From: Chloroflexota bacterium
GTDB lineage: Bacteria; Chloroflexota; Anaerolineae; Anaerolineales; UBA11858
Length of the DNA stretch: 64,000 nt
Direction: 5' to 3'
Assembly: GCA_018648225.1 (NCBI GenBank)
Contig: JABGRQ010000081.1
Location: forward strand, 6,092-70,091
Positions within the stretch are counted from its first letter, which is position 1; each line of letters starts with the position of its first letter. The notes beneath the pieces were generated by a model, which was given only the letters and a program-made list of their open reading frames with translations, was not told the origin of the DNA and searched no databases. Position numbers and translations under genes: made by a program. Shown here piece by piece: positions 4,074-56,669 of the stretch.

Positions 4074-5150
4074 TCAGGGCAGGCTGCGCGCTAATAAATT
4101 AAGCCAGTTTTGGCCCATAACAGACTGAATATCACTTTCAGTATACCCTTTTTCGGCCAATAGCCCAGCCAGTTTTCCAAGATCGGCAATCGTATCGATG
4201 CCTTCGGGTACGCTCTGTAAGCCAAAACCGCCATCGAAATCGCTGCCAATGCCCACATGCGCGGCATCCCCGGCCAGTTGACAAATATAATCAATTTGCG
4301 CGGCCACAAAACCCAATGTTACCCGATGGCGTCCATCGCTGGCTTGCCAGCCGGGGAGCAAAAAGGGATTATAAGGCACAACACCAATGATAGCATCACG
4401 CTCGATCAGCCCGTGGATGACACGGTCAGAAAGGAAGCGATTACTATCCAGGCCGTCGAGCAAGGCAGACGCATTGGCATGAGATGCAAGCATTGTGCCG
4501 GGGAAAATATCCAGAGCCTGCAACACCGCTTTTTCGTCCATGTGGCTGAAATCGAGGCTGAAGCCAAAATCGGCCATTGCTTCGAGCAGGGCATATCCAT
4601 CGCTTGTCAGCGGGCCTGGTTCGCCGGTGCCACCGCAAAAGCGCGTCCCCGCCCAGGCCGGACCAATCAGGCGCACACCACGCTGCCACCATTCTTCCAA
4701 CTCCGATGGGTGTCCGACTGCCTCGGCAGCCTCCATCAAGATCACCAGCCCAACCGGAGGGGAGGCCGTTTCGGGCTGCCACTCGGCCAGATGCGCCCGC
4801 AAGTCAGTTTGCGTTCGAATCAGGCGGAATTTATCAGGGTGCTGATCGACCAGGCGATGGTAGGCATCCAGTTGCGCCGAATAGCGCAGTCGGGCTTCGG
4901 CGGTGTCCCGGTAACTCTGCACATCCCACTCACCCAGCGTGCGCCGCGCCGGAGACGCAAATAGTGTGGCGAAAATCACGGCGACGCGCCCCTGTTGATA
5001 TTCGTGCCAGCCGAGCAGGGTATCGCCGTTGTGACGCGGTGCAGCGCTGTGCATTTCAAGGCGGCGAGTTTCTAACGCCGAACGGGTGTAATCGCGCCCG
5101 AAGGTGAGCATATTCCAGGCCAGGTCTTGGTGGGCATCTACAATGAGCAT
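4074..5150 (-). CDS. Membrane dipeptidase, peptidase M19 family
   Basis: MLIVDAHQDLAWN start motif (HxD) and later DFDG region. Start at ATG 5150; the upstream part of ORF 4074..5483 overlaps mutY. Confidence 0.8.
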   Translation of the reverse strand: MLIVDAHQDLAWNMLTFGRDYTRSALETRRLEMHSAAPRHNGDTLLGWHEYQQGRVAVIFATLFASPARRTLGEWDVQSYRDTAEARLRYSAQLDAYHRLVDQHPDKFRLIRTQTDLRAHLAEWQPETASPPVGLVILMEAAEAVGHPSELEEWWQRGVRLIGPAWAGTRFCGGTGEPGPLTSDGYALLEAMADFGFSLDFSHMDEKAVLQALDIFPGTMLASHANASALLDGLDSNRFLSDRVIHGLIERDAIIGVVPYNPFLLPGWQASDGRHRVTLGFVAAQIDYICQLAGDAAHVGIGSDFDGGFGLQSVPEGIDTIADLGKLAGLLAEKGYTESDIQSVMGQNWLNLLARSLP

Positions 5151-7415: not shown

Positions 7416-8909
7416 ATGAAACGCGCACTCATCTTGATGATTCTCTCCCTGATGCTGACGGCTTGCGGGGCCGCGCCCGAGGTGGTTCCAACTGAAACAG
7501 CGGTTCCTACACTCGCTTCGCTCGCGGCGAGTCCTACGCTCGAGCCAACCCAGACCCCGACGCCGGAACCCACCCCCACGCCAGAACCCAGCCCTACGCC
7601 CGCGCCCCCACCCGAAATCCAGTACGCCATCTCCGCCGAGTTGGATTTTAGCGCCCGTTGGCTAAAGGCATCGGAAACCATCACTATCCCCAACCTGTCA
7701 GACGAACCCATCACGAATCTGACGCTGGTCGTACAACCGCGCTGGTATGAAAACGCCTTCGAATTAACCAGCCTGACCTGGGACGATGGAACGCCGATTG
7801 AGGGTTATTATTTCGACGAAATCAGCCTGATTATTCCACTGGCGGAACCGCTGGCTCCCAATGATACGCGCCGCCTGACGATGGATTTTGAACTTTTCTT
7901 GCCCCAGATTATCCAGTCGGAAGATTATGGGCCGATCCCCTTTGGATATACGCTGCGCCAGGTCAACCTGGTCGATTGGTATCCCTTCGTTCCGGCGTAT
8001 AAAGCCGGGGAGGGCTGGATCGTACACCCTACCTGGTATTATGGCGAACACCTGGTTTACCCGGTGGCAAATTTCGATGTAGCCCTGAAAGTAGTAAATG
8101 CCCCCTCGGTGACAATGATCGCCGCCAGCGCACCCGATACGGGGAATGACGATGTGCATATTTACCATCTCGAAGATGCGCGCAATTTTGTGGCTTCGGT
8201 GAGTGCTTCGTATATGCTGCTCGAAGAACAGGTTGATGATGTGCTGGTTCAGGCATATATCTTTCCGCAGCATCAGGTGGGCGGGAAAGCCGCTTTTGAA
8301 ACCGTGATTAACGCGCTGGAATTGTATACTGAACTTTATGGCGAATATCCCCACTCTAGCATGACGCTGGTCGAAGCCGATTTTTTGCACGATATGGAAT
8401 ACCAGAGCCTGATTTTTATCAGCCACGCATTTTTCAACACCTTCGATGGTACCGCTGAAACCTATCTGGTGACGATTACGGCACATGAAACCGCGCACCA
8501 GTGGTTTTACGGGCTGGTCGGCAACGATCCGTTTTTAGAGCCGTGGCTGGATGAGGCTTTTTGCACCTACAGCGAGCGTCTCTTTTACGAAAAATTGTAT
8601 CCCAACTCGCAAGATTGGTGGTGGTACGCGCGGGTGAATTATTATGTACCCTCGGGCTGGATCGATAGCGATCTGACTTACAACGGCGGCTATCGCACCT
8701 ACCGCGATGCGATTTATTTACAAGGCGCAAAATTTTTGGAAGATTTACGCTTTTTGATCGGCGATGAGGCTTTCTTCGCCTTTGTAAAAGATTATGTGGA
8801 AACCTATCGCAATCAGATTGTCACACGCCAAGATTTTTTCACCACCCTGGCACGTCACAGCAATGTGGATATCAGCGCGTTGATGACATCGTATTTTCAG
8901 TATCCGTAG
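7416..8909 (+). CDS. M1-family zinc metallopeptidase, lipoprotein
   Basis: HETAHQWFYG...WLDEAF gluzincin motif (HExxH-18-E). Lipobox LTACG. Pro/Thr-rich linker. Confidence 0.85.
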   Translation: MKRALILMILSLMLTACGAAPEVVPTETAVPTLASLAASPTLEPTQTPTPEPTPTPEPSPTPAPPPEIQYAISAELDFSARWLKASETITIPNLSDEPITNLTLVVQPRWYENAFELTSLTWDDGTPIEGYYFDEISLIIPLAEPLAPNDTRRLTMDFELFLPQIIQSEDYGPIPFGYTLRQVNLVDWYPFVPAYKAGEGWIVHPTWYYGEHLVYPVANFDVALKVVNAPSVTMIAASAPDTGNDDVHIYHLEDARNFVASVSASYMLLEEQVDDVLVQAYIFPQHQVGGKAAFETVINALELYTELYGEYPHSSMTLVEADFLHDMEYQSLIFISHAFFNTFDGTAETYLVTITAHETAHQWFYGLVGNDPFLEPWLDEAFCTYSERLFYEKLYPNSQDWWWYARVNYYVPSGWIDSDLTYNGGYRTYRDAIYLQGAKFLEDLRFLIGDEAFFAFVKDYVETYRNQIVTRQDFFTTLARHSNVDISALMTSYFQYP

Positions 8910-8914
8910 TGAAA

Positions 8915-9009
8915 GCCCTCACCCTGACCTTCGTTTTACTCAGGTTTGTCCCTCTCCCAAAATTGGGAGAGGGACGTATTCGAAGCGCAGCGAGAATCAG
9001 GGTGAGGGC
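8915..9009. repeat. Family A palindromic repeat (outer GCCCTCACCC/GGGTGAGGGC, inner CCCTCTCCC-N-GGGAGAGGG), full copy
   Basis: Nested inverted repeats read directly from the sequence. Intergenic. Confidence 0.8.
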
Positions 9010-9022
9010 ATAGTATAAAATC

Positions 9023-9934
9023 ATGGAAAAACAACTCCTCAAAACTTACGGCAGCGGGTGCGCCCGTAATATCGCTTTCCAAATTTTCAGCGTGGTGCTG
9101 GTATTTGGCCTGTTCATCATCCCGGCGCTGATTGCAGCGTTGTGGGGCGGCGACCGAGATACCAACTTCACTTTTTTCATCGTAATTTTGATCGGGCTAA
9201 TGCTGGCAGGCATCGTCGGGGTTATCATCTGGGGCTTGCGCAGCATTCGTCAACGCGCCGCGTATCTCGATGAGGTCTTTGCCGCGTGGGGGCTGGAAGG
9301 CCAGCCTTATTTACAGAACGGACGGCGCTACCAGGGCAAATTACTCGGTCGACAGGCCGATATTTATTTCCACCGCGGCCCAACATTGGAGATCAATATC
9401 GCTGTGCCGTTGAATACGCGCGCTGCAATACTTTTCAAGAGCGAAATCGGCAAATTTGGCGCTAATCTATCGGGGTATGAAGAAGTAGACCTTAATGACC
9501 CCATTTTTCGCAATTTAAGTCTCTACGCGCTGGATGCAAATTGGATGCGCAATATTCTTCACGAGCGTGCTCCGCGCACAGCCATTCGTCAATTAATGCG
9601 GGTGACTGGAGCTTATGAACTACGCCAGATTTTGGTGCAACCTGAGGGTATCAAATTTATGCTGCGCCGCATTCAACTCGAAGCGATTAACCATAAACAT
9701 ATGGAAGCTTGGGTGAATGATCTGCGTGTGCTGCTTGAAGCCATCAAAACCGCACCCAGGCCGCAAGAGATCACCATGGTAATGACTCCACTGAAGTATG
9801 GCACCGCCGAACCCACTGATCGTAAATCGCTTGCCATTCTGGGGGCGGGGGTGGGTTGCAATGTATTATTGGCGCTGATGGCTTGTGGGGGATTGGTTGC
9901 ATTGATCGGCCTGCTAGTGTCACGATTGCAGTAG
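9023..9934 (+). CDS. Hypothetical membrane protein (2 N-terminal TM plus 1 C-terminal TM)
   Basis: ATG start and clear TM segments. No family recognised. Confidence 0.5.
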   Translation: MEKQLLKTYGSGCARNIAFQIFSVVLVFGLFIIPALIAALWGGDRDTNFTFFIVILIGLMLAGIVGVIIWGLRSIRQRAAYLDEVFAAWGLEGQPYLQNGRRYQGKLLGRQADIYFHRGPTLEINIAVPLNTRAAILFKSEIGKFGANLSGYEEVDLNDPIFRNLSLYALDANWMRNILHERAPRTAIRQLMRVTGAYELRQILVQPEGIKFMLRRIQLEAINHKHMEAWVNDLRVLLEAIKTAPRPQEITMVMTPLKYGTAEPTDRKSLAILGAGVGCNVLLALMACGGLVALIGLLVSRLQ

Positions 9935-9994: not shown

Positions 9995-10050
9995 GTCATG
10001 CCGAGGCGTATAGCCGAGGCATCCAGCGCAGCGTAGGGCGCTTCGCTAGA
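9995..10050. repeat. Family B-like partial copy
   Basis: gtcatgccgaggcgtatagccgaggcatcc...cgcttcgctagac. One arm only. Confidence 0.4.
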
Positions 10051-10149
10051 CACTTGTACCTGCACTCTTCTTTTGATGAATTCACTTTTTTCTAAACATC
10101 GTTTATAATGGACTAACTTTATCCACATTCCCTTCAGGAGACCTTTTTT

Positions 10150-12144
10150 ATGCAAACACTCAATCCAAATAAGTGGCAGCGCATCATCGCGGTTGCATTG
10201 CTGTTTTTGCTGGCGTTGGTCGTTTCGGCATCGATCAGCGTACGCCCGGCATTGGCTCAAGACGATGATCCCTATGTCGAAATTATTAACGAAACCGATA
10301 CAACGCTATGCGCCTTTGGCGCCGTTCCCGCGGGCGAGAGTGAAGTCGCTGCGGAACACATCTTCGCCGAGGTGGAACTCGAACCGGGTGATGATTTTTG
10401 GGATTATTATGATCTCGTGGGCACGTTCACGCTGGTGGCTGCCGATTGTGAGGACTACACCATCGTGGAAGTGGCCGAGAACGTGGAATTAGGTCAGGTT
10501 GGCGTAATATGGTATGTGGGCGACAGCGTAGAGTATGACGGTGAAGTCGTGGCGCAGGATTCTGCCAGTAGTGGAGGATCAACCTCGAGCGAGTCCACCA
10601 CCCCCAGCGGAGATGCCGCCGATAGCGGCTTCCGTCCCGAAGATAACGGCTTCAGCTTCGAAAACTATGGCAACGATTCCGTCTCCGCCAATCTCACCGC
10701 GGCTGAACTGCAGCGCATGTTTGGCGATATGGTCTGCGCCAGTTTATCCGGAGGAGAGTGCATACTCACGCCGCCTGCGCAACGCTGGATGACCGAGATC
10801 AATAATTATATGGACGGCGGGCACTGTGAAGGCATGGCTGTGCTAAGTATGTTGATGTACGACCAAATTATTGAGGCCGCACAATTCGGCGGCGATACCG
10901 CTCACGATCTTTCACTGGCCGACGAAGCTTTGCAGCGCGAAATTGCCTATTGGTGGACAACACAGGCCACATTGCCCGCATCCTCGATCAAGCTGGACGA
11001 ATCGCCCAGTGCTATTCTGGACGTGCTGATTCAGACTTTTAACGAAGGCGCAAACGCGGCTGAAAAATGGGTCATGGGCATTTATATGGCCGATTTCAGC
11101 GGCGGGCACGCGATTACACCTTACGCCGTAGAAGATCAGGGCGGCGGCATTTTCCATGTTTTGGTTTACGACAACAACTGGCCCGATATGGGACGTGTGC
11201 TGGTGATTGATAAAAACGGCAATTCCTGGTCGTATCAGGCATCCACTAACCCCAACGAACCGGAATCGCTCTATGAAGGCGATGCCAGCACGGGCACGCT
11301 GGAAATTGTGGGCATTACCAGTCGCCTTGAGCAGCAATATTGTGAATTTTGCGCTGGCGACGGAAACGCCAGTTTGGGGCGCGGGCGCGGGCTGGCTGCT
11401 CCGGCACAAGAGTTCAATCAGATTTGGCTCAACGGCCAGGCCGACCTGCTGATCACCACCGCCGAAGGCAAACGCATTGGCTTCGTGGATGGTGAGTTCG
11501 TCAACGAGATCGAAGGCGCCCGCGGCGACAATATGAAATTCGGCGTGGATATTTGGGACATCAACAACGAGCCGGTTTACTTCATCCCGCTGGGGATTGA
11601 GTTCACCATCACGGTGGATGCCAGCCGCGCCGCAGAGGGCATCACCTCCGATGTGACCATGATCGGCCCCGGCTATAACCTGGTTGTGGCCGACCTTTAT
11701 CTGGACCCCGGAGCGAAAGATGTGATTACAATCTCCCCGGATGGCAAACGCCTGGCGTACAGCACCGAATATAACGACGCCCCAGATATGATCTTCGGCA
11801 TCGAAACCCCCGCCGCCGATTACGAATTCATCGTGGCGGCTCTGGATATCGAATCGGGCGCTGAGTTCATCGTCGAACTGGATATTGAAAACGGCACGTT
11901 GAGCATCAATACCGACAACACCACGGAATACGGCACTTACGAAATTGTGATGTACCGTATCGACGATGATGGAGAAGCCTGGTTCAATAATAATGATATT
12001 TATATGGAACCGGGCGACACCGCCTTTCTCAAATTCCTGGAATGGGAAGGCCCCGGCACCAGTATGTTCATCGACATCGACTACGGCTCCGATGGTTCCA
12101 TCGATGAGACAATTGAACTTGTAGATGAGTACGTAGCGGAATAA
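10150..12144 (+). CDS. Secreted acidic hypothetical protein; possible Cys-nucleophile hydrolase
   Basis: AGGAG SD. Signal peptide ending ALAQDD. GGHCEGMA (G-x-C-x-G) and GGHAITPYAV motifs. The function is speculative. Confidence 0.6.
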   Translation: MQTLNPNKWQRIIAVALLFLLALVVSASISVRPALAQDDDPYVEIINETDTTLCAFGAVPAGESEVAAEHIFAEVELEPGDDFWDYYDLVGTFTLVAADCEDYTIVEVAENVELGQVGVIWYVGDSVEYDGEVVAQDSASSGGSTSSESTTPSGDAADSGFRPEDNGFSFENYGNDSVSANLTAAELQRMFGDMVCASLSGGECILTPPAQRWMTEINNYMDGGHCEGMAVLSMLMYDQIIEAAQFGGDTAHDLSLADEALQREIAYWWTTQATLPASSIKLDESPSAILDVLIQTFNEGANAAEKWVMGIYMADFSGGHAITPYAVEDQGGGIFHVLVYDNNWPDMGRVLVIDKNGNSWSYQASTNPNEPESLYEGDASTGTLEIVGITSRLEQQYCEFCAGDGNASLGRGRGLAAPAQEFNQIWLNGQADLLITTAEGKRIGFVDGEFVNEIEGARGDNMKFGVDIWDINNEPVYFIPLGIEFTITVDASRAAEGITSDVTMIGPGYNLVVADLYLDPGAKDVITISPDGKRLAYSTEYNDAPDMIFGIETPAADYEFIVAALDIESGAEFIVELDIENGTLSINTDNTTEYGTYEIVMYRIDDDGEAWFNNNDIYMEPGDTAFLKFLEWEGPGTSMFIDIDYGSDGSIDETIELVDEYVAE

Positions 12145-14537: not shown

Positions 14538-15020
14538 ATGATCTTGCCCTCACCCCGTCTACCGCTACGCTCTAGACTCCCCTCTCCCGATTTCGGGAGA
14601 GGGGCCGGGGGCGAGGGCAAAATTCAAAAAACGCTTACCCAAGCCTTCCGATACGCACTCGTCGGCGTTTCGAACACGCTGATTGATGCAGCAACCTACT
14701 ACACCCTGACGCGCGCGCTTGGGTTGGCGACACTGCCGGTGCTGGCAAAAGGTTTGGCCTACGCCATTGGCATGACTAACAGCTTTTACTGGAACCGTAC
14801 CTGGACATTTCGTGCTAAGGATACAATATATCGTGTCCCAATCTGGCGAGCGGCTTTCCTCTTCACACTAACACATATCGTCGCACTGGGCATCAACGCC
14901 GGGGTGATGGCCCTCAGCCTGAACTTGTTGCACGTTCCGGAAATTGTCGCTCTGATTCTGGCAACTGCGGCCGCCTTCGGCTGGAATTTCTTCCTGAACA
15001 AGTGGGTTGTTTTTAAATAA
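14538..15020 (+). CDS. GtrA-family membrane protein; N-terminus encoded by a palindromic repeat
   Basis: FRYALVGVSNTLIDAATYY and GWNFFLNKWVVF GtrA motifs. The nearest canonical start is ATG 14538, 2 nt after the GT39 stop. The start is uncertain. Confidence 0.7.
   Translation: MILPSPRLPLRSRLPSPDFGRGAGGEGKIQKTLTQAFRYALVGVSNTLIDAATYYTLTRALGLATLPVLAKGLAYAIGMTNSFYWNRTWTFRAKDTIYRVPIWRAAFLFTLTHIVALGINAGVMALSLNLLHVPEIVALILATAAAFGWNFFLNKWVVFK
14546..14618. repeat. Family A palindromic repeat at the gtrA 5' end
   Basis: gccctcacccc...cccctctcccgatttcgggagagggg...ggggcgagggc. Confidence 0.8.
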
Positions 15021-32059: not shown

Positions 32060-32062
32060 CCG

Positions 32063-32100
32063 CCCCTCACCCCCTGCCCCTCTCTTGCGGGAGAGGGGCA
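32063..32100. repeat. Family A repeat, partial copy between the MFS gene and menG
   Basis: cccctcaccccctgcccctctcttgcgggagaggggc. Confidence 0.7.
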
Positions 32101-50711: not shown

Positions 50712-50733
50712 TGTTCCAAGTTAAAGGTTGAAA

Positions 50734-50778
50734 GTTGAAGGTTGAAGGTAGAGAGATCTGTAACCTTCAACCTTCAAC
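50734..50778. repeat. Family E hairpin (GTTGAAGGTTGAAGGT / ACCTTCAACCTTCAAC) between znuA and znuC
   Basis: Perfect 16-bp arms with a 13-nt loop. The arms are themselves tandem octamers. Confidence 0.8.
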
Positions 50779-50794
50779 CTGACACCCAAAACCC

Positions 50795-51646
50795 ATGTCC
50801 TTTCTCGACGAACTGCTCAAAACCAGCCAACATCTTTCCAAGCACCGCCACCCTCATCTGGATGACAAACAGATTTTACAGGCGGATGATTTAAGCGTGC
50901 GTTACGAAAGCGGCGCGGCGCTGGACGAAGTCACATTTTCATTAAACGCCGGGCAGAGGCTGGCAATTGTTGGCCCCAACGGTGCCGGAAAAAGCACTTT
51001 GCTTCAGGTTATTGCCGGGGTATTGGCCCCCACCAGCGGACAGGTACATATTTTTGGCAACGCGCCAGGCGGGCATATTTGCATTGCCTACGTGCCGCAG
51101 CGCAGCCAGGTCGATTGGAGTTTCCCGGTCACGGTGAGCGACGTGATTATGATGGGGCGCGTCGGTCAGTTGGGGCTATTTCGCAATCCCACCAAACACG
51201 ATTGGCGCCTGGTCAATCAGGCGCTGGAAGTCGTGAGTCTGACACACCTCGCCAAACGCCAGATCAGCCAGCTTTCGGGCGGGCAGCAACAGCGCATGTT
51301 TATCGCCCGCGCCCTGGCGCAAGAAGCCGAATTAATGTTGATGGACGAGCCGCTCACCGGGCTGGATGTCAACTCACAAGAGCAAATATTCAATATTCTC
51401 GATCAACTCAAAAGGCAAAATGTGACCGTGTTAATTTCGCTGCATGACCTGAAAATGGCAGCGCAGCGTTTCGATGAAGTTTTACTGCTCAACAAGCAGA
51501 TGCTCGCAATCGGCGACCCGGCGTTGGTACTGGCCCCGAAGAATCTCCTGGCGGCCTATGGAGGCCGCCTGCACCTGGTGCCCACCGAAGATGGCCTGCT
51601 GGCCCTCGACGATACCTGCTGCGAAGGGGAACACGACCATGCTTGA
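50795..51646 (+). CDS. znuC: Metal ABC transporter ATP-binding protein (ZnuC/TroB-like)
   Basis: GPNGAGKST, LSGGQQQRMFIARAL and LMLMDEP. Cys/His-rich tail CCEGEHDHA. Confidence 0.85.
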   Translation: MSFLDELLKTSQHLSKHRHPHLDDKQILQADDLSVRYESGAALDEVTFSLNAGQRLAIVGPNGAGKSTLLQVIAGVLAPTSGQVHIFGNAPGGHICIAYVPQRSQVDWSFPVTVSDVIMMGRVGQLGLFRNPTKHDWRLVNQALEVVSLTHLAKRQISQLSGGQQQRMFIARALAQEAELMLMDEPLTGLDVNSQEQIFNILDQLKRQNVTVLISLHDLKMAAQRFDEVLLLNKQMLAIGDPALVLAPKNLLAAYGGRLHLVPTEDGLLALDDTCCEGEHDHA

Positions 51647-52487
51647 GTTCATTCTTGAGCCCCTGCAATACGCTTTCATGGTGCGTGGCCTGATCGCCGC
51701 CGTGCTGGTCGGGATGGTCAGCGCGGTGGTAGGGACCTATGTAGTTTTACGCGGCATGGCCTTTTTCGGCGATGCTCTGGCGCACGCCATCCTGCCGGGG
51801 ATCGCGGTTGGCTACCTCGTTGGGGGCGGCGCGCGCGAGCCGCTTTTCTGGTGGGCGTTGGTAACAGCAATCCTCAGTTCGCTGGGTATTGGGGCGATCA
51901 GCCGCAACACACAGATTAAAGAAGACACCGCCATCGGGATCGTTTTTGCCGGGATGTTTGCGCTAGGAGTAGCGCTCATCTCTACGGTGCGCAGCTACAC
52001 CGTCGATCTGGCGCACTTTCTCTTTGGGGATGTACTGGGGGTGCGAAATACCGATCTATGGCTGATCGCGGCTTTCGGTGGTTTTGTTTTGCTGGCGATT
52101 CTGGCGTTCTACAAAGAATTTATGGTACTCTCGTTTGACCCCATTCTGGCGGCTACGCTGCGCCTGCCGGTGCGCCTGCTCGATTTTCTGCTGCTGGTAT
52201 TGATTGCCATCACCATTGTGGTCTCGCTGCAAACCGTGGGGGTCGCGCTTATGGTTGCCATGCTTGTGACCCCCGCGGCGACCGCTTATTTGCTCACCCG
52301 CCGCCTGCCGGTAATGATGGCATTGGCCGCGGCGATTGCGTCCATTTCCGGGGTAATCGGGCTGTATATTTCGTATTATCTGAGTATTGCCTCCGGTTCA
52401 GCGATTGTGCTGACCTGCACGGCAATCTTTGGGCTGGTGTGGGGGATACGGGCAGCCGTAATGCGGCGCGCGACGCGACGTTTATAA
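51639..52487 (+). CDS. znuB: Metal ABC transporter permease (ZnuB/TroC-like)
   Basis: ATG 51639 overlaps the znuC stop. FFGDALAHAILPG motif. Confidence 0.85.
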   Translation: MLEFILEPLQYAFMVRGLIAAVLVGMVSAVVGTYVVLRGMAFFGDALAHAILPGIAVGYLVGGGAREPLFWWALVTAILSSLGIGAISRNTQIKEDTAIGIVFAGMFALGVALISTVRSYTVDLAHFLFGDVLGVRNTDLWLIAAFGGFVLLAILAFYKEFMVLSFDPILAATLRLPVRLLDFLLLVLIAITIVVSLQTVGVALMVAMLVTPAATAYLLTRRLPVMMALAAAIASISGVIGLYISYYLSIASGSAIVLTCTAIFGLVWGIRAAVMRRATRRL

Positions 52488-52741
52488 TCTCCTGTTTTTT
52501 TCTGATAAATTATTGGCACTTGATTTACGATCAAATATCCGCGATAATGGATGCATAAAACGAAAGGAGGTTTCCCATAGAAAATACTCATCCTTTCCAA
52601 CCACTGGCACCTTTACCGATAAACCCCGCCCGCAGATAGGGTTGATGCTATCGCAGGAAAGCTCAGTAAGCTAATTTACAGGCTGGTGCTGGTGGACTCT
52701 CCGTAAGTGCAGGTGAAAATTGAATACGCAAGACGATCTAT

Positions 52742-52777
52742 AAACAGACCCGTTGGTTCTCAACAACGGGTCTGTTT
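52742..52777. terminator. Hairpin / bidirectional terminator at the queG 3' end
   Basis: Perfect 14-bp stem aaacagacccgttg/caacgggtctgttt. The queG stop codon lies in the loop. Confidence 0.65.
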
Positions 52778-53971
52778 CATTAAAGCCAGGGCCGCTTGAA
52801 TCTCGGCCAGCACATCGGGGTCGCTTTCGCTCTCGGCGGCAGATTTTAGCGCAGCGTGCGCCGCTTCACCACCAATCTTCCCCAAAGCCCAGGCCGCATG
52901 CCCGCGCACCAACGGTTCAGTATCACGCAGGGCCTGCGCCAGTGCAGGCGCTGCATCCGCGCCCCCAATATTGCCCAATGCAACCGCAATATTGCGCAAA
53001 TAGCCGCGCCGTTTCGTACGCTTGATCGGTGTGCCCTTGAATTTGCGATTGAATGCCTGCGGAGTGAGAGCGAGTTCTTCCGTCAATAAGCCCCATCTTC
53101 CGTCCTCCCCAAGATCAGTGGGGAAATTTTTCTCCCCCTCCCTTCTCCCAGCATTGGGAGAAGGGAGGGGGCTGGGGGGTGGGGTGAGGGCCTTATTCCA
53201 CGGGCAGACTTGCTGGCAAATATCACAGCCAAAAATCCAGTTCCCCACTTTGGGGCGCAAATCTTGGGGAAACGCGCCTTTATGTTCAATCGTCAGGTAT
53301 GAAATGCAGCGATTAGCATCGATTGTGCGATCAGGCAAAATACACGCGGTGGGACAGGCATCCAGGCAACGCGTGCACGTTCCGCAGTGATCCTGCAAAA
53401 AAGGCGCGTCGGGCGTTAACTCCACACCGAGCAATATTTCGGCCAGCAAAAAATACGACCCTGCTTTGGGATGAATCAAATTGCTGTTCTTGCCGACCCA
53501 GCCCAACCCGGCGCGCTGTGCCAATTCTCGCTCTAACACCGGGCCGGTATCGGTATACCAGCGATTGGGAACCGAATACCCCACTTGGGCTTCGATGAAT
53601 TCCACAATTGCGCGCAAACGCGGCGGCAACACATCGTGATAATCTTGCTCCTGAGCATAGGCGGCAATCTTGCCCTCACCCCTTCGCCCCTCTCCCACTG
53701 GGAGAGGGGTTGGGGGTGAAGGCGCTTCGTAGACAAACCCCAACATCAAAATCGATTCGCATTCGGGCAGAATCAACCGCGGGTCGGCGCGGCGCTGGCG
53801 GGCGCGCTCGCTTGCCATCCAGTCCATCCCGGCATGATACCCGGCATCCAGCCAACGCGCGTACACATCCAGATGCGCCGGTGGTTCTGGCGTGGTCACA
53901 CCCACCAGATGGAATCCCTGCCGCTGTGCTTCAGCCTTTATGGCGCGGGTTAACTCCGTTTTTGCGAGCAT
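52760..53971 (-). CDS. queG: tRNA epoxyqueuosine(34) reductase QueG with C-terminal HEAT repeats
   Basis: Two 4Fe-4S motifs (CGTCTRCLDACP, CDICQQVCPWN), DYHDVL, and a HEAT-like tail. Start at ATG 53971. Confidence 0.85.
   Translation of the reverse strand: MLAKTELTRAIKAEAQRQGFHLVGVTTPEPPAHLDVYARWLDAGYHAGMDWMASERARQRRADPRLILPECESILMLGFVYEAPSPPTPLPVGEGRRGEGKIAAYAQEQDYHDVLPPRLRAIVEFIEAQVGYSVPNRWYTDTGPVLERELAQRAGLGWVGKNSNLIHPKAGSYFLLAEILLGVELTPDAPFLQDHCGTCTRCLDACPTACILPDRTIDANRCISYLTIEHKGAFPQDLRPKVGNWIFGCDICQQVCPWNKALTPPPSPLPSPNAGRREGEKNFPTDLGEDGRWGLLTEELALTPQAFNRKFKGTPIKRTKRRGYLRNIAVALGNIGGADAAPALAQALRDTEPLVRGHAAWALGKIGGEAAHAALKSAAESESDPDVLAEIQAALALMKQTRC
53131..53191. repeat. Family A repeat inside the queG CDS
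   Basis: ccccctcccttctcccagcattgggagaagggaggggg...ggggtgagggc. Translated as PPPSPLPSPNAGRREGEK on the minus strand. Confidence 0.8.
53672..53723. repeat. Family A repeat inside the queG CDS
   Basis: gccctcaccccttcgcccctctcccactgggagaggggttgggggtgaaggc. Translated as PSPPTPLPVGEGRRGEG. Confidence 0.8.
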
Positions 53972-54014
53972 GGCCGCGATTATACCGCGCCGATTGGATG
54001 CTATAATCACCGAC

Positions 54015-55010
54015 ATGTCCAACAAAACGCAATTCGCACTAAACAATTTACTGGCACGCGCCCTGGCAGCCCGGTCAGGCCTGATTGATGCCGATCACGC
54101 CGCGGGGCTGCGTCTGTTCAGCGGTTTCTATGAGGGCTACCCCAATCTGGTGGCCGATATTTACGCCCGCACGCTGGTGTTATTCGATTATGGCGAATCC
54201 GGGGATGCGCTGAAAAACGCGGGGGAATTTCTGCGAGAGAGACTTCCCTGGATTAATTGCGTGATCCACAAGACGCGCTCGGCGCGTGATGCAGCTCAAC
54301 GGAGGGGGATACTCGCCTTTGGGGATGCGCCTGCCGAGAACATCCGCGAGTACGGCGTGACGTACGCCCTCGATTTACAACTACAACAAGATGCCAGTTT
54401 CTACCTCGATACGCGGGCGCTGCGCCTGTGGCTCCGGGAGAACGCCGCCGGGTGGGATATGCTCAACACCTTCGCCTACACCGGCAGTCTGGGGGTGGCG
54501 GCGCTGGCCGGGGGCGCAGCGCGGGTTATCCAAACTGACCGCAATCGTAAATTTTTAGATCTGGCACATCATTCCGCCCGACTCAATCGACTCGATTTGG
54601 GGAAACAAAAATTACAAGCTGGTGATTTTTTCAGCGTGATCGCCAGATTGAAGCAGCGTAAGGCGCGTTTCGACTGCGTCATCATTGACCCACCTTTCTT
54701 CTCCAGTACCGCAAAAGGCACGATTGATCTCGTCAACGAGAGTACCCGCCTGATTAATAAAGTGCGCCCCTTAATCAAGGATGGCGGCTGTCTGGTCACG
54801 ATCAACAACGCCCTCTTTCTTCCCGGAGCAGACTATATGCACTCGCTTAAAGCCCTGTGCATTGATGGGTACCTCAGCATCGAAACCATCCTTCCCGTTC
54901 CGAGCGATATTACCGGCTTTCCAGAAACCATCGTTGGCGCGCCGCCCGTCGATCCGGCACCCTTCAACCACGCTACGAAAATTGTCGTCTTACGCGTGCG
55001 GCGAAGATAA
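54015..55010 (+). CDS. Class I SAM-dependent (RlmI/RlmK-like) methyltransferase
   Basis: LNTFAYTGSLGVAA, VIIDPPFF (DPP motif). Confidence 0.7.
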   Translation: MSNKTQFALNNLLARALAARSGLIDADHAAGLRLFSGFYEGYPNLVADIYARTLVLFDYGESGDALKNAGEFLRERLPWINCVIHKTRSARDAAQRRGILAFGDAPAENIREYGVTYALDLQLQQDASFYLDTRALRLWLRENAAGWDMLNTFAYTGSLGVAALAGGAARVIQTDRNRKFLDLAHHSARLNRLDLGKQKLQAGDFFSVIARLKQRKARFDCVIIDPPFFSSTAKGTIDLVNESTRLINKVRPLIKDGGCLVTINNALFLPGADYMHSLKALCIDGYLSIETILPVPSDITGFPETIVGAPPVDPAPFNHATKIVVLRVRRR

Positions 55011-56625: not shown

Positions 56626-56669
56626 CGCCCTCACCCCGGCCCTCTCTCGGAGGGAAAGGGAGAAAGAGC
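56626..56669. repeat. Family A-like degenerate copy inside the serS T-box leader
   Basis: cgccctcaccccggccctctctcggagggaaagggag. The palindrome is imperfect. Confidence 0.45.

Follow-up and report, generated by a model that had tools for sequence, protein, structure and literature searches.

Two GC-rich palindromes lie inside the reading frame of queG, a conserved cofactor enzyme gene, in a genome where related palindromes also occur between genes. This raises the question of which repeat family they belong to and how they have persisted as coding sequence. The locus was analyzed within a 64,000-nucleotide stretch (the window) from a marine Anaerolineales MAG of the Chloroflexota, in which the gene and its two repeats are placed as follows.

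52760 to 53971, minus strand: queG, tRNA epoxyqueuosine(34) reductase, 403 aa, intact, identified from the open reading frame, phmmer, motifs and metatranscriptome contigs.
53672 to 53723, no strand assigned: site 1, a complete nested palindrome of 52 nt (BoxC/TM element) in the Cbl-insert loop, before DYH.
53131 to 53191, no strand assigned: site 2, a BoxC/TM element made of one outer arm, a spacer and an extended hairpin, directly after CPWN.

The minus-strand open reading frame extends over 52760-54046, with the ATG at 53971 as the most likely start, which gives the 403 aa product. A phmmer search against the PDB matched B. subtilis QueG 5D08 with E = 2.8e-58 (residues 45-400) and 5D6S with E = 3.7e-43. 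The 7998 homologs that were found included several named QueG, and the Pfam domains of a QueG homolog were QueG_DUF1730, Fer4_16 and HEAT_2. The invariant columns of QueG include all cysteines, D110-Y111-H112 and D141-T142-G143, and the window protein keeps all invariant motifs (all Fe-S cysteines, DYH and TDTGP). Judged by its sequence, it is a QueG, with a Cbl-binding domain carrying DYH and TDTG(P), eight cluster cysteines and a C-terminal HEAT-like domain.

Inspection of the gene confirmed two in-frame members of the window's family of nested GC-rich palindromes, and both are read through by the minus-strand frame, as a previous sequence-only reading of this DNA had stated. Site 1 has the structure GCCCTCACCCC-TTCG-CCCCTCTCCCA-C-TGGGAGAGGGG-TTGG-GGGTGAAGGC, in which an 11-nt pair of outer arms with one mismatch (53672-53682 and 53713-53723) encloses a perfect inner hairpin of 11 bp (53687-53709). 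Its RNA fold has an energy of -44.9 kcal/mol (z = -6.8), and the codons P84-G100 (53672-53722) read PSPPTPLPVGEGRRGEG, here called orientation A in the gene sense. Site 2 contains a perfect 17-bp hairpin (53134-53171; RNA fold z = -4.0) and a single outer arm, GGGTGAGGGC at 53182-53191, the second outer arm being absent. It encodes approximately A261-K281, read as ALTPPPSPLPSPNAGRREGEK. The following further family copies were located in the window.

8915 to 9009, no strand assigned: intergenic family copy with long spacers (25-26 nt) and the same arms and core; fold -61.4 kcal/mol, z = -9.2.
14546 to 14618, no strand assigned: family copy just past the stop of the upstream open reading frame (14536); z = -7.0.
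About 32062 to 32099, no strand assigned: partial family copy with one arm and the hairpin, directly after a TAA stop.
56627 to 56660, no strand assigned: degenerate partial family copy with an arm and a decayed hairpin.

The copy at 8915-9009 fills the gap between an open reading frame ending at 8909 and one starting at 9023. Both queG segments share its arms and core, so that the common family membership proposed in the sequence-only reading holds. The copy at 14546-14618 is located within the 5' leader or the N-terminal extension of the next gene. In total, 6-7 family copies lie within the 64-kb window, and several distinct flanks were present in the same metagenomes. The core pattern CCCTCNCCC-N1-8-GGGNGAGGG gave 3 exact matches versus 0 in 100 shuffles, and the arm GGGTGAGGGC, with at most one mismatch, gave 17 matches versus 4.35 expected. 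Generic GC-rich hairpins were no more than two-fold in excess in queG (0.29 versus 0.14 per kb), and the palindrome enrichment in queG is specific to the two loops rather than general.

The repeats to which the queG segments could be assigned are the BoxC, PIT or TMECO elements, reportedly described by Bachellier in the 1990s and by Hoyne and Maher in 2000. They have been known since the 1990s, and to our knowledge no function or mobility mechanism has been accepted for them. The G/C-rich class II 'intrastrand triplex motif' of this family is defined as 5'-CCCTCNCCC N3-6 GGGNGAGGG N3 GGGNGAGGG-3', a definition that tolerates one mismatch (Holder 2015, PMC4666352). On the sequence evidence both queG segments are copies of it. 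The plus strand of site 1 reads CCCTCTCCC-ACT-GGGAGAGGG-GTTGG-GGGTGAAGG, that is, the three blocks with one mismatch and a second loop of 4-5 nt versus 3 in the definition, and site 2 reads CCCTTCTCCC-AGCAT-TGGGAGAAGGG-...-GGGGTGAGGG, a variant core. By blastn, site 1 was ~81% (80.8%) identical over its full 52 nt to intergenic E. coli copies with the same architecture. Matches of 80-90% identity occurred in 4029 of the 5426 E. coli genomes, and those listed overlapped no annotated feature. A metagenome scan for the motif gave more than 120 loci with a GC content of 40 to 75%, and AceE, an Eco57I-type methylase and an SNF2 helicase also carry the element in frame. BoxC was reported to be always intergenic in E. 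coli K-12 (Holder 2015, PMC4666352); this habit lies outside the sequence definition and is not shared by the two queG copies, which are inside the open reading frame and in frame.

Both segments occupy length-variable, peripheral parts of QueG, in agreement with the sequence-only reading. In an alignment to B. subtilis QueG, site 1 maps onto the 'Cbl-insert' Tyr77-Asp104 (PMC5175355), and the loop is no longer than the B. subtilis one but equal in length. The Cbl-insert is ordered in B. subtilis QueG and props the RNA-binding domain (PMC5175355), and it is therefore not a free 'floppy' loop. Site 2 directly follows the last cluster cysteine motif CPWN (Cys247), where the Fd domain meets the RNA-binding domain. 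This segment exceeds B. subtilis QueG by 15 residues and the ~190 Anaerolineales orthologs by 14-24 residues, and the distance from CPWN to FNRKF is 47 aa in the window QueG versus 23-33 in most of these orthologs. The excess of about 15 aa over Bacillus QueG that had been pointed out is thus real and represents a clade-specific lengthening. An AF2 model, built from a 25-sequence alignment and of poor quality (mean pLDDT 66, TM ~0.47 to 5D08), had a pLDDT below 50 at 83-114 and 249-291, a weak hint that both segments may be flexible.

RNA-library (metatranscriptome) contigs spanned both repeats unspliced, with 0 differences and no joints; queG is transcribed, with the qualification that RNA libraries can contain DNA. 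The same sequence was present in at least 12 independent contigs, and all sampled words occurred in at least 8 DNA runs.

The age of the site-1 element was apparent from its orthologs. Those with 61-75% protein identity hold it at the same codons and with the same spacer pair. The comparison of the two orientations at the DNA level covered seven copies. Orientation A, with the spacers CCAAC and GCGAAG, is found at the same codons in the window and in L001, P0005 and P0017, and the reverse complement of the element occupies the same boundaries in P0023, P0007 and P0030 (orientation B). Orientation B gives the peptide PSPLRPSPxGRGVGGEG in place of the orientation A peptide. The window copy was identical to the reverse complements of P0023, P0007 and P0030 at 49, 48 and 46 of 53 positions, respectively, compared to 30-33 of 53 in direct comparisons. 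The sister sequences P0017 and P0023 (99* support, 88% aa identity) carry site 1 in opposite orientations. Two further sister contrasts of this kind, by peptide only, were P0044 versus P0057 and P0030 versus P0011 and P0029. Read from these sequences, the orientation of site 1 appears to have flipped at least four times. A simple full inversion requires the base at the loop center to be complemented; P0030 (ACT) shows this change, whereas P0023 (AGT) and P0007 (AAT) do not. P0015 carries the A form minus exactly 15 nt (spacer plus arm), and decayed or shortened forms were present in P0002, P0003, P0011, P0015, P0029 and L001.

The conservation of site 1 as DNA was unusual. Third-position identity was 0.65-0.94 within the element versus 0.37-0.49 in the rest of queG, and in four of five pairs the element ranked first in nucleotide conservation among all 17-codon stretches of queG. 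These comparisons indicate that site 1 was not inserted recently and that it has been kept, ~90% identical as DNA, through divergence to ~61% protein identity. Site 2, on the other hand, is confined to the window and its two nearest relatives, L081 and L084, and the codon alignment resolved three in-frame indel states: in L084 the arm and spacer are the same but the distal half of the hairpin is missing, and the palindrome of L081 is shorter. Site 2 is thus a clade-specific lengthening; site 1 is no lineage-specific insertion, its codons being shared and its loop not lengthened. Repeat-free orthologs do have a site-1 loop of the same length, which had been named as an observation that would speak against the repeat interpretation, yet site 1 is a true family member. 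No target-site duplication was present in the flanks of site 1 (GAAGCG/CCTTCA...GAGGGC/AAGATT), and no direct duplication was seen flanking site 2 (AATAAG/GCCCTC).

Palindromes of other origin recur in the same loops. Independent, unrelated palindromes are located at site 1 in L043/L047, L031, L075, L077 and L006, and at both sites in P0012. In 1.39 Mb around queG, 7 of 16 family matches lie inside queG itself. The site-1 loop of L043 measures 24 aa versus 22-25 in its relatives, so the palindromes replace loop sequence without lengthening it. The recurrence of unrelated palindromes marks the two QueG loops as unusually permissive, or targeted.

We consider it probable that the queG segments are copies of a pan-bacterial BoxC family that have become coding, site 1 being old, vertically inherited and reshaped in place, and site 2 being younger. 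The element is a nested G/C-rich palindrome, CCCTCACCC - CCCTCTCCC - loop - GGGAGAGGG - GGGTGAGGG, that could fold as a hairpin or as an intrastrand triplex. Copies may persist because two of three frames are free of stops in either orientation (the sole stop is a TGA in GGGTGAGGG, in one frame), because the translation products are low-complexity peptides, Pro/Ser-rich and then Gly/Glu/Arg-rich, and because the QueG segments in which they sit are peripheral, one at the 'Cbl-insert' loop tip and the other in the linker that connects the ferredoxin-like domain to the HEAT-like domain. Site 1 would be an old resident inherited vertically within one Anaerolineales QueG clade. There it may have been reshaped in situ by inversion between the inverted arms (orientation A versus B), by slippage of 15 nt between the two G-blocks (30-aa versus 25-aa loops) and by point decay, with the loop length staying near that of repeat-free QueGs. 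Site 2 would have been acquired later, by the ancestor that the window shares with its two nearest relatives, and is now seen in its three in-frame indel states. The segments are presumably translated into a working enzyme. Inversion in situ is the presumed mechanism of the flips, and tolerance of the loops the presumed reason for the recurrence. The survival of stop-free, multiple-of-three copies in tolerant loops fits all the data.

A neutral element in a merely tolerant loop would not predict strong nucleotide conservation, and tolerance alone is therefore an incomplete account. Site 1 could instead function as a nucleic acid, with purifying selection on the hairpin or triplex as a translation pause, RNA-stability or processing element, and with an invertible segment yielding two loop peptides; we regard this as possible rather than probable. 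Its top-ranking conservation in four of five pairs extends to four-fold sites, of which 9-13 of 11-15 are identical compared to 0.28-0.48 elsewhere, and copies in either orientation retain the queG-specific spacers. In well-preserved copies (window, P0005 and P0017), three stem substitutions produce G-U wobbles on the sense RNA, but this count is tiny and L001 has pair-breaking changes. The word depth in the RNA libraries was much higher 3' of the site-1 hairpin (213 versus 17 in X9 and 15 versus 0-3.5 in X20), although these are assembler word depths of contigs only and a poor measure of expression. Against selection stand the many lineages that let the element decay or shorten, including P0015 and L001 among those named above. 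An Rfam search with the hairpins matched only sub-threshold miRNA and snoRNA models, which were treated as spurious, and no promoter, terminator or regulatory role emerged for BoxC in E. coli from the work of Maher and Holder (PMC4666352). The more specific version, in which site 1 is a conserved invertible coding module whose mRNA hairpin or DNA triplex is under purifying selection and whose inversion switches between two Cbl-insert peptide isoforms, is in our view doubtful; the element might then make translation pause between the two halves of the Cbl-binding domain, or it might stabilize the 3' part of the message. The exaptation suggested by the sequence-only reading is not supported beyond one hint: selection at the protein level falls far short of accounting for the conservation of the site-1 DNA.

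The A, B and other-lineage copies could also be independent insertions at a targeted hot spot, brought about by a nuclease, a transposase or microhomology-driven templated insertion. This is unlikely. Such targeting would suit the unrelated palindromes in the same loop elsewhere and in both loops of P0012, the concentration of family matches within queG and the replacement rather than lengthening of the loop, and the Pro/Gly runs of the loop (C-runs and G-runs) could supply microhomology. Of 120 loci selected for the motif, 3 had DUF559 endonuclease genes flanked by it on both sides, but neither the window nor the queG loci contained a DUF559 motif. Independent insertion is also hard to reconcile with A and B copies that agree exactly in their codon boundaries and have one specific spacer pair in common, merely reverse-complemented. 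Spacers were diverse among ~20 full metagenome copies, and GCGAAG was not seen among them; the missing target-site duplications argue in the same direction. Concerted evolution, by which ectopic gene conversion from copies in the same genome would keep the queG copy near consensus and sometimes flip it, is more improbable still. The family is multi-copy in the window, its palindromic arms can pair in either orientation, and the P0023 copy is nearer to consensus than that of its sister P0017. However, the other copies in the window have different spacers (25 nt, CTG and CGG), and in L086, L087, L088 and L211 no motif besides the one in queG is present in 11-21 kb. As the spacers are specific to queG and common to orthologs in other genomes, ectopic conversion as the cause of the conservation is mostly rejected. 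Finally, Pro (CCN) and Gly (GGN) codons are complementary, and P...G loops are weakly palindromic by nature, which would favor chance or convergent low-complexity coding. These explanations, together with an assembly artefact, were ruled out by the exact family arms, core and architecture (0 expected by chance), the full-length identity to E. coli BoxC and the independent contigs and DNA runs, and their probability is negligible.

The favored reading, BoxC copies that became coding, can be compared with known repeat systems. The MITE-like insertion of the sequence-only reading did not hold up, as the family is BoxC/PIT/TMECO and no structure of terminal inverted repeats with a target duplication was seen. 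Coxiella QMITEs and similar MITEs are reportedly non-autonomous repeats that add coding sequence to open reading frames; the elements here are much shorter (36-61 nt), without terminal inverted repeats and target-site duplication, and their arms belong to the palindrome itself. We know of no RAYT link for BoxC-type copies such as these, and of no description of Rickettsia palindromic elements (RPEs) flipping orientation at a fixed site. The queG copies resemble BoxC/PIT/TMECO in the pattern CCCTCNCCC-loop-GGGNGAGGG-loop-GGGNGAGGG, in the nested or paired palindromes and, within the 64-kb window, in the occurrence of several scattered copies, and the local indel and rearrangement instability reported for that family (PMC4666352) matches the site-2 states and the flips and slippage of site 1. 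They differ in their host, Chloroflexota (Anaerolineales) rather than the Proteobacteria in which the family is catalogued and the cyanobacteria in which it is noted, in being coding and in frame with one copy long kept, and in the longer second loop.

RPEs, as summarized in a later paper (Ogata 2000, 2002, cited in PMC3733652), are likewise palindromic in-frame repeats in genes that remain functional, typically surface-exposed and possibly more than one per gene. By that description they form an unrelated sequence family restricted to Rickettsia, with RPE-1 being longer (about 100-150 bp). Intragenic GTAG/CGTC-tagged REPs are small GC-rich palindromes in open reading frames, with units or dimers encoding 20-30 aa (Di Nocera 2013, PMC3733652), and sometimes two insertions occur in one gene, as in uvrA of O. 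terrae and uvrB of R. conorii (PMC3733652). They represent a different family: the copies at 14546, 53131 and 53672 carry no GTAG/CGTC tag at their ends, and the sole GTAG nearby, at 8915, contains the stop codon of the upstream open reading frame. The queG case is a further instance of RPE/REP-like coding repeats, and its likeness to RPEs is one of function, as a palindromic repeat read in frame.

Published descriptions place BoxC between genes, and here the family is found in Chloroflexota, carried in frame inside a conserved cofactor enzyme. For annotation, BoxC accounts for the unusual P/S/G/E/R-rich stretches of QueG loops, which should not be taken for errors or for protein-level innovations. 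Site 1 offers a natural system in which to ask whether the nucleic-acid structure of the repeat is selected and how short palindromes invert in place. If it were indeed a selected invertible module, the unexplained BoxC family would have its first coding copy that is long-lived and linked to a function.

The minus-strand ORF that carries both palindromes was assigned to QueG on its sequence similarity to the epoxyqueuosine reductases of B. subtilis and S. thermophilus (5D08, E = 2.8e-58; 5D6S, E = 3.7e-43). Its homologs number in the thousands, several of them named QueG and from Anaerolineales or Chloroflexota MAGs, and the sequence was present in runs of seawater or marine metagenomes. The gene and the repeat copies of the window are as follows.

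52760-54046, minus strand: queG ORF, most likely start ATG 53971, 403 aa
53672-53723, in queG: site 1, complete nested palindrome with an 11-nt outer pair (one mismatch) and 4-5-nt spacers
53131-53191, in queG: site 2, 17-bp perfect hairpin plus one outer arm
8915-9009: family copy, truly intergenic (ORF end 8909, next ORF start 9023)
14546-14618: family copy, 10 nt past the stop of the upstream ORF (window 14538-14620)
about 32062-32099: family copy
56627-56660: family copy

The inner hairpin of site 1 is a perfect 11 bp with a one-base centre. Reading of the ORF bore out that both queG copies lie in frame: site 1 is translated as P84-G100, PSPPTPLPVGEGRRGEG, and site 2 as about A261-K281. 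The arms and core of the family recurred at the four further positions, and the intergenic copy at 8915-9009 shares them, as the sequence-only reading had claimed. The gene following the copy at 14546-14618 probably starts downstream of it, because translating the copy would need a far-upstream ATG. The exact core pattern occurred 3 times in the window and 0 times in 100 shuffles, and as RNA both sites folded much more stably than shuffles (z = -6.8 for site 1 and z = -4.0 for site 2).

Holder et al. (2015; PMC4666352) described a G/C-rich intrastrand triplex motif, "TMECO", as CCCTCNCCC-N3-6-GGGNGAGGG-N3-GGGNGAGGG and identified it with two repeats named earlier, BoxC from the 1990s and Hoyne and Maher's PIT elements. 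Their count over 262 proteobacterial genomes was 3610 copies, and they state that every copy in E. coli K-12 is intergenic and that no function is known for the motif. Of 5426 complete E. coli genomes, 4029 contained a match to the 52-nt site-1 segment at 80-90% identity; the best matches were full length and lay in DNA without an annotated feature. One E. coli copy between two genes consists of arm, 2-nt spacer, core hairpin, 2-nt spacer and arm, which is the site-1 architecture. By sequence, the window repeats belong to this known BoxC/PIT/TM motif. The family is very widespread, since an exact-pattern scan of metagenome contigs found it at more than 120 loci on contigs of 40 to 75% GC. Neither a GTAG/CGTC tag nor a target-site duplication was seen at the repeat copies, which rules out a classical REP or MITE; the earlier proposal of MITE-like insertion was thus not upheld, there being no such duplication. 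That proposal was right in kind, the repeat being palindromic, in frame and placed in loops that tolerate it; such a repeat can be likened to the RPE/REP coding repeats. It missed that the family was already known.

The sites were placed in the protein by HMMER alignment to 5D08 and the residue numbering of Dowling et al. (2016; PMC5175355). Site 1 (Y81 to D110) coincides exactly with the B. subtilis "Cbl-insert" (Tyr77-Asp104), an extended loop of the cobalamin domain that, with the Fd-insert, makes a platform for the HEAT-like RNA-binding domain and terminates at the DYH motif with the catalytic His106 (PMC5175355). The loop has the same length in B. subtilis and the window, and therefore the element replaced loop sequence without lengthening it. 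Site 2 starts directly after Cys247-Pro-x-Asn, at the passage from the Fd domain to the RNA-binding domain. Here the window has 15 residues more than B. subtilis, matching the sequence-only estimate for the loop after CPWN, and the CPWN-to-FNRKF distance is 47 residues; among about 190 Anaerolineales orthologs it is 23-33 in most. In an AF2 model, residues 83-114 and 249-291 had pLDDT <50, a hint only as the model was poor overall (mean pLDDT 66).

In the protein alignment some orthologs (62-69% identity) shared the site-1 peptide; others had a second one, PSPLRPSPxGRGVGGEG. Seven copies were compared as DNA. The window, L001 (P0004), P0005 and P0017 carry the element in orientation A, with identical codon boundaries and the spacers CCAAC and GCGAAG. 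In P0023, P0007 and P0030 it is reverse-complemented (orientation B) within the same boundaries: the window matched these reverse complements at 49/53, 48/53 and 46/53 positions, respectively, against 30-33/53 in direct comparison. In a tree of 120 homologs built with both sites excluded, the two orientations were scattered through one half, requiring at least 4 orientation changes. P0017 (A) and P0023 (B) are sisters (support 99, 88% identity); further contrasts, seen in the peptide only, were P0044/P0057 and P0030 versus P0011/P0029. As the B-copy spacers are the A-copy spacers swapped and complemented, whereas other family copies in the window and metagenomes have diverse spacers, re-insertion and ectopic conversion are less favoured than in-place inversion across the inverted arms of 10-11 bp. 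Simple inversion does not account for one detail: the loop centre base is complemented in P0030 and unchanged in P0023 and P0007. Loops of 25 aa were common, as in P0015 (PSPPAPPPKGEG). Its DNA differs from the A form by the loss of exactly 15 nt (spacer and distal arm), as slippage between the direct G-blocks GGGAGAGGG and GGGTGAGGG would be expected to cause. P0003 and P0002, the latter syntenic and of 77% identity, have decayed or shortened versions. Site 1 is best read as a long-standing resident that was inherited vertically and inverted repeatedly.

At site 2, repeat-like sequence was found only in the window and its two nearest relatives. L084 (P0003) has the arm and spacer of the window, GCCCTCA[T/C]CCCACCCCCC[G/A]GCCCCCTCCC; the distal hairpin half is missing from it, as are roughly 20 more codons. 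In L081 (P0002) the palindrome is a different one and shorter. The reading frame is preserved in each of the three states, which match the local instability tied to the TMECO motif by Holder et al. (PMC4666352). The notion of lineage-specific insertions holds for site 2 and fails for site 1.

The queG neighbourhood (window 51474-55010) is conserved in L081, L086-L088, L209 and L211. ZnuA/ABC_tran/ABC-3 metal transporter genes are present at every one of these loci, and CbiM-CbiQ and Fur-family genes at some (L081, L087 and L211); in the nearest relative a divergent SAM methyltransferase adjoins queG. A perfect 14-bp hairpin, AAACAGACCCGTTG / CAACGGGTCTGTTT, at 52742-52777 overlaps the stop codon of queG, whose terminator it probably is. 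An inverted repeat of tandem AGGTTGA/AGGT units lies at 50725-50780 (19 nt, 95% complementary, 18 nt apart). Many Anaerolineales have a GC-rich 12-15-bp hairpin near the queG coding 5' end, at about nt 25-60 (locus coordinates about 10025-10060; L031, L036, L039, L044, L049, L053, L072, L075, L077 and L079). It is made by the codons of a conserved K-A-E-A-R-R-L-G-F / A-R-Q-L-G-F-x-L-A-G motif and varies in sequence by lineage; the hairpin scan listed none in the window's own queG.

Contigs from several metatranscriptomic libraries matched queG with no differences. X9 and X23 each span both sites, and no joints skipped either repeat, so queG may be transcribed with its repeats unskipped, DNA carry-over in RNA libraries being possible. 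Contigs tended to break at both sites, as expected of repeated sequence. Around the site-1 hairpin (53662-53760), assembler word depths in RNA libraries were much higher 3' than 5' in mRNA sense (213 vs 17 in X9, 15 vs 0-3.5 in X20), though such contig depths are a poor gauge of expression; DNA runs were flat.

Independent site-1 palindromes were found in other Anaerolineales, of the BoxC family in other registers (L043, L047, L031, L075) and of other families (L077, L006). That of L077 (about 10230-10330) is an unrelated third palindrome, GGGGATAGGGGATAAGGGTGAAGGG...CCCTTATCCCCTGTCCCTTATCCCC (-60 kcal/mol), translated into a 43-aa Cbl-insert loop. P0012 (L210:1912-3120) has strong C-run/G-run palindromes at both sites, with runs of 7-13 C and G; both are translated and fold at -76 kcal/mol (site 1) and -63 kcal/mol (site 2). 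The DNA surrounding queG in about 80 species (1.39 Mb) contained 16 family matches, not all independent; 7 of them lay inside queG, which makes up ~7% of that DNA. The two QueG loops are either unusually permissive or unusually targeted. The motif is also in frame in a pyruvate dehydrogenase E1 (between two domains), an Eco57I-type methylase and an SNF2 helicase. Five metagenome loci (L096, L110, L111, L122 and L139) share a BoxC variant in which another small hairpin, GGCCGGAGGCC, separates core from arm; the L096 copy (4191-4250) lies in frame between the middle domain of pyruvate dehydrogenase E1 and its C-terminal domain. Among 120 metagenome loci chosen by repeat pattern only, 3 had motif hairpins on both sides of a DUF559 gene (L140, examined over its whole length; L177 near 597; L182 near 7649). 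That of L140 (686-1125; 115 aa; PF04480, E = 1.5e-36) is flanked by two inverted BoxC/TM units with GGGGTGAGGGG / CCCCTCACCCC blocks toward the gene. No DUF559 gene was found in the window or the queG loci.

In well-kept copies, the 51 coding nt of the site-1 element were 84-94% identical, against 62-71% for the rest of the gene. Third-codon-position identity was 0.65-0.94 in the element versus 0.37-0.49 elsewhere; at four-fold sites of identical residues, one example had 11/12 identical versus 0.41 elsewhere. In 4 of 5 pairs the element exceeded all other 17-codon queG windows in conservation of nucleotides or third positions, including those with the Fe-S and catalytic motifs. Selection at the protein level cannot account for such conservation in a Pro/Gly-rich loop, and unbiased correction of one arm from the other would, we infer, leave the long-term substitution rate unlowered. 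Either selection acts on the nucleic-acid sequence or structure, or some biased process protects the element; any nucleic-acid constraint is not universal, since many lineages let the element decay. The suggested exaptation is unproven. The nucleotide-level conservation of site 1 is a real, unexplained signal, and the unusual evolutionary behaviour of this element merits a focused test.
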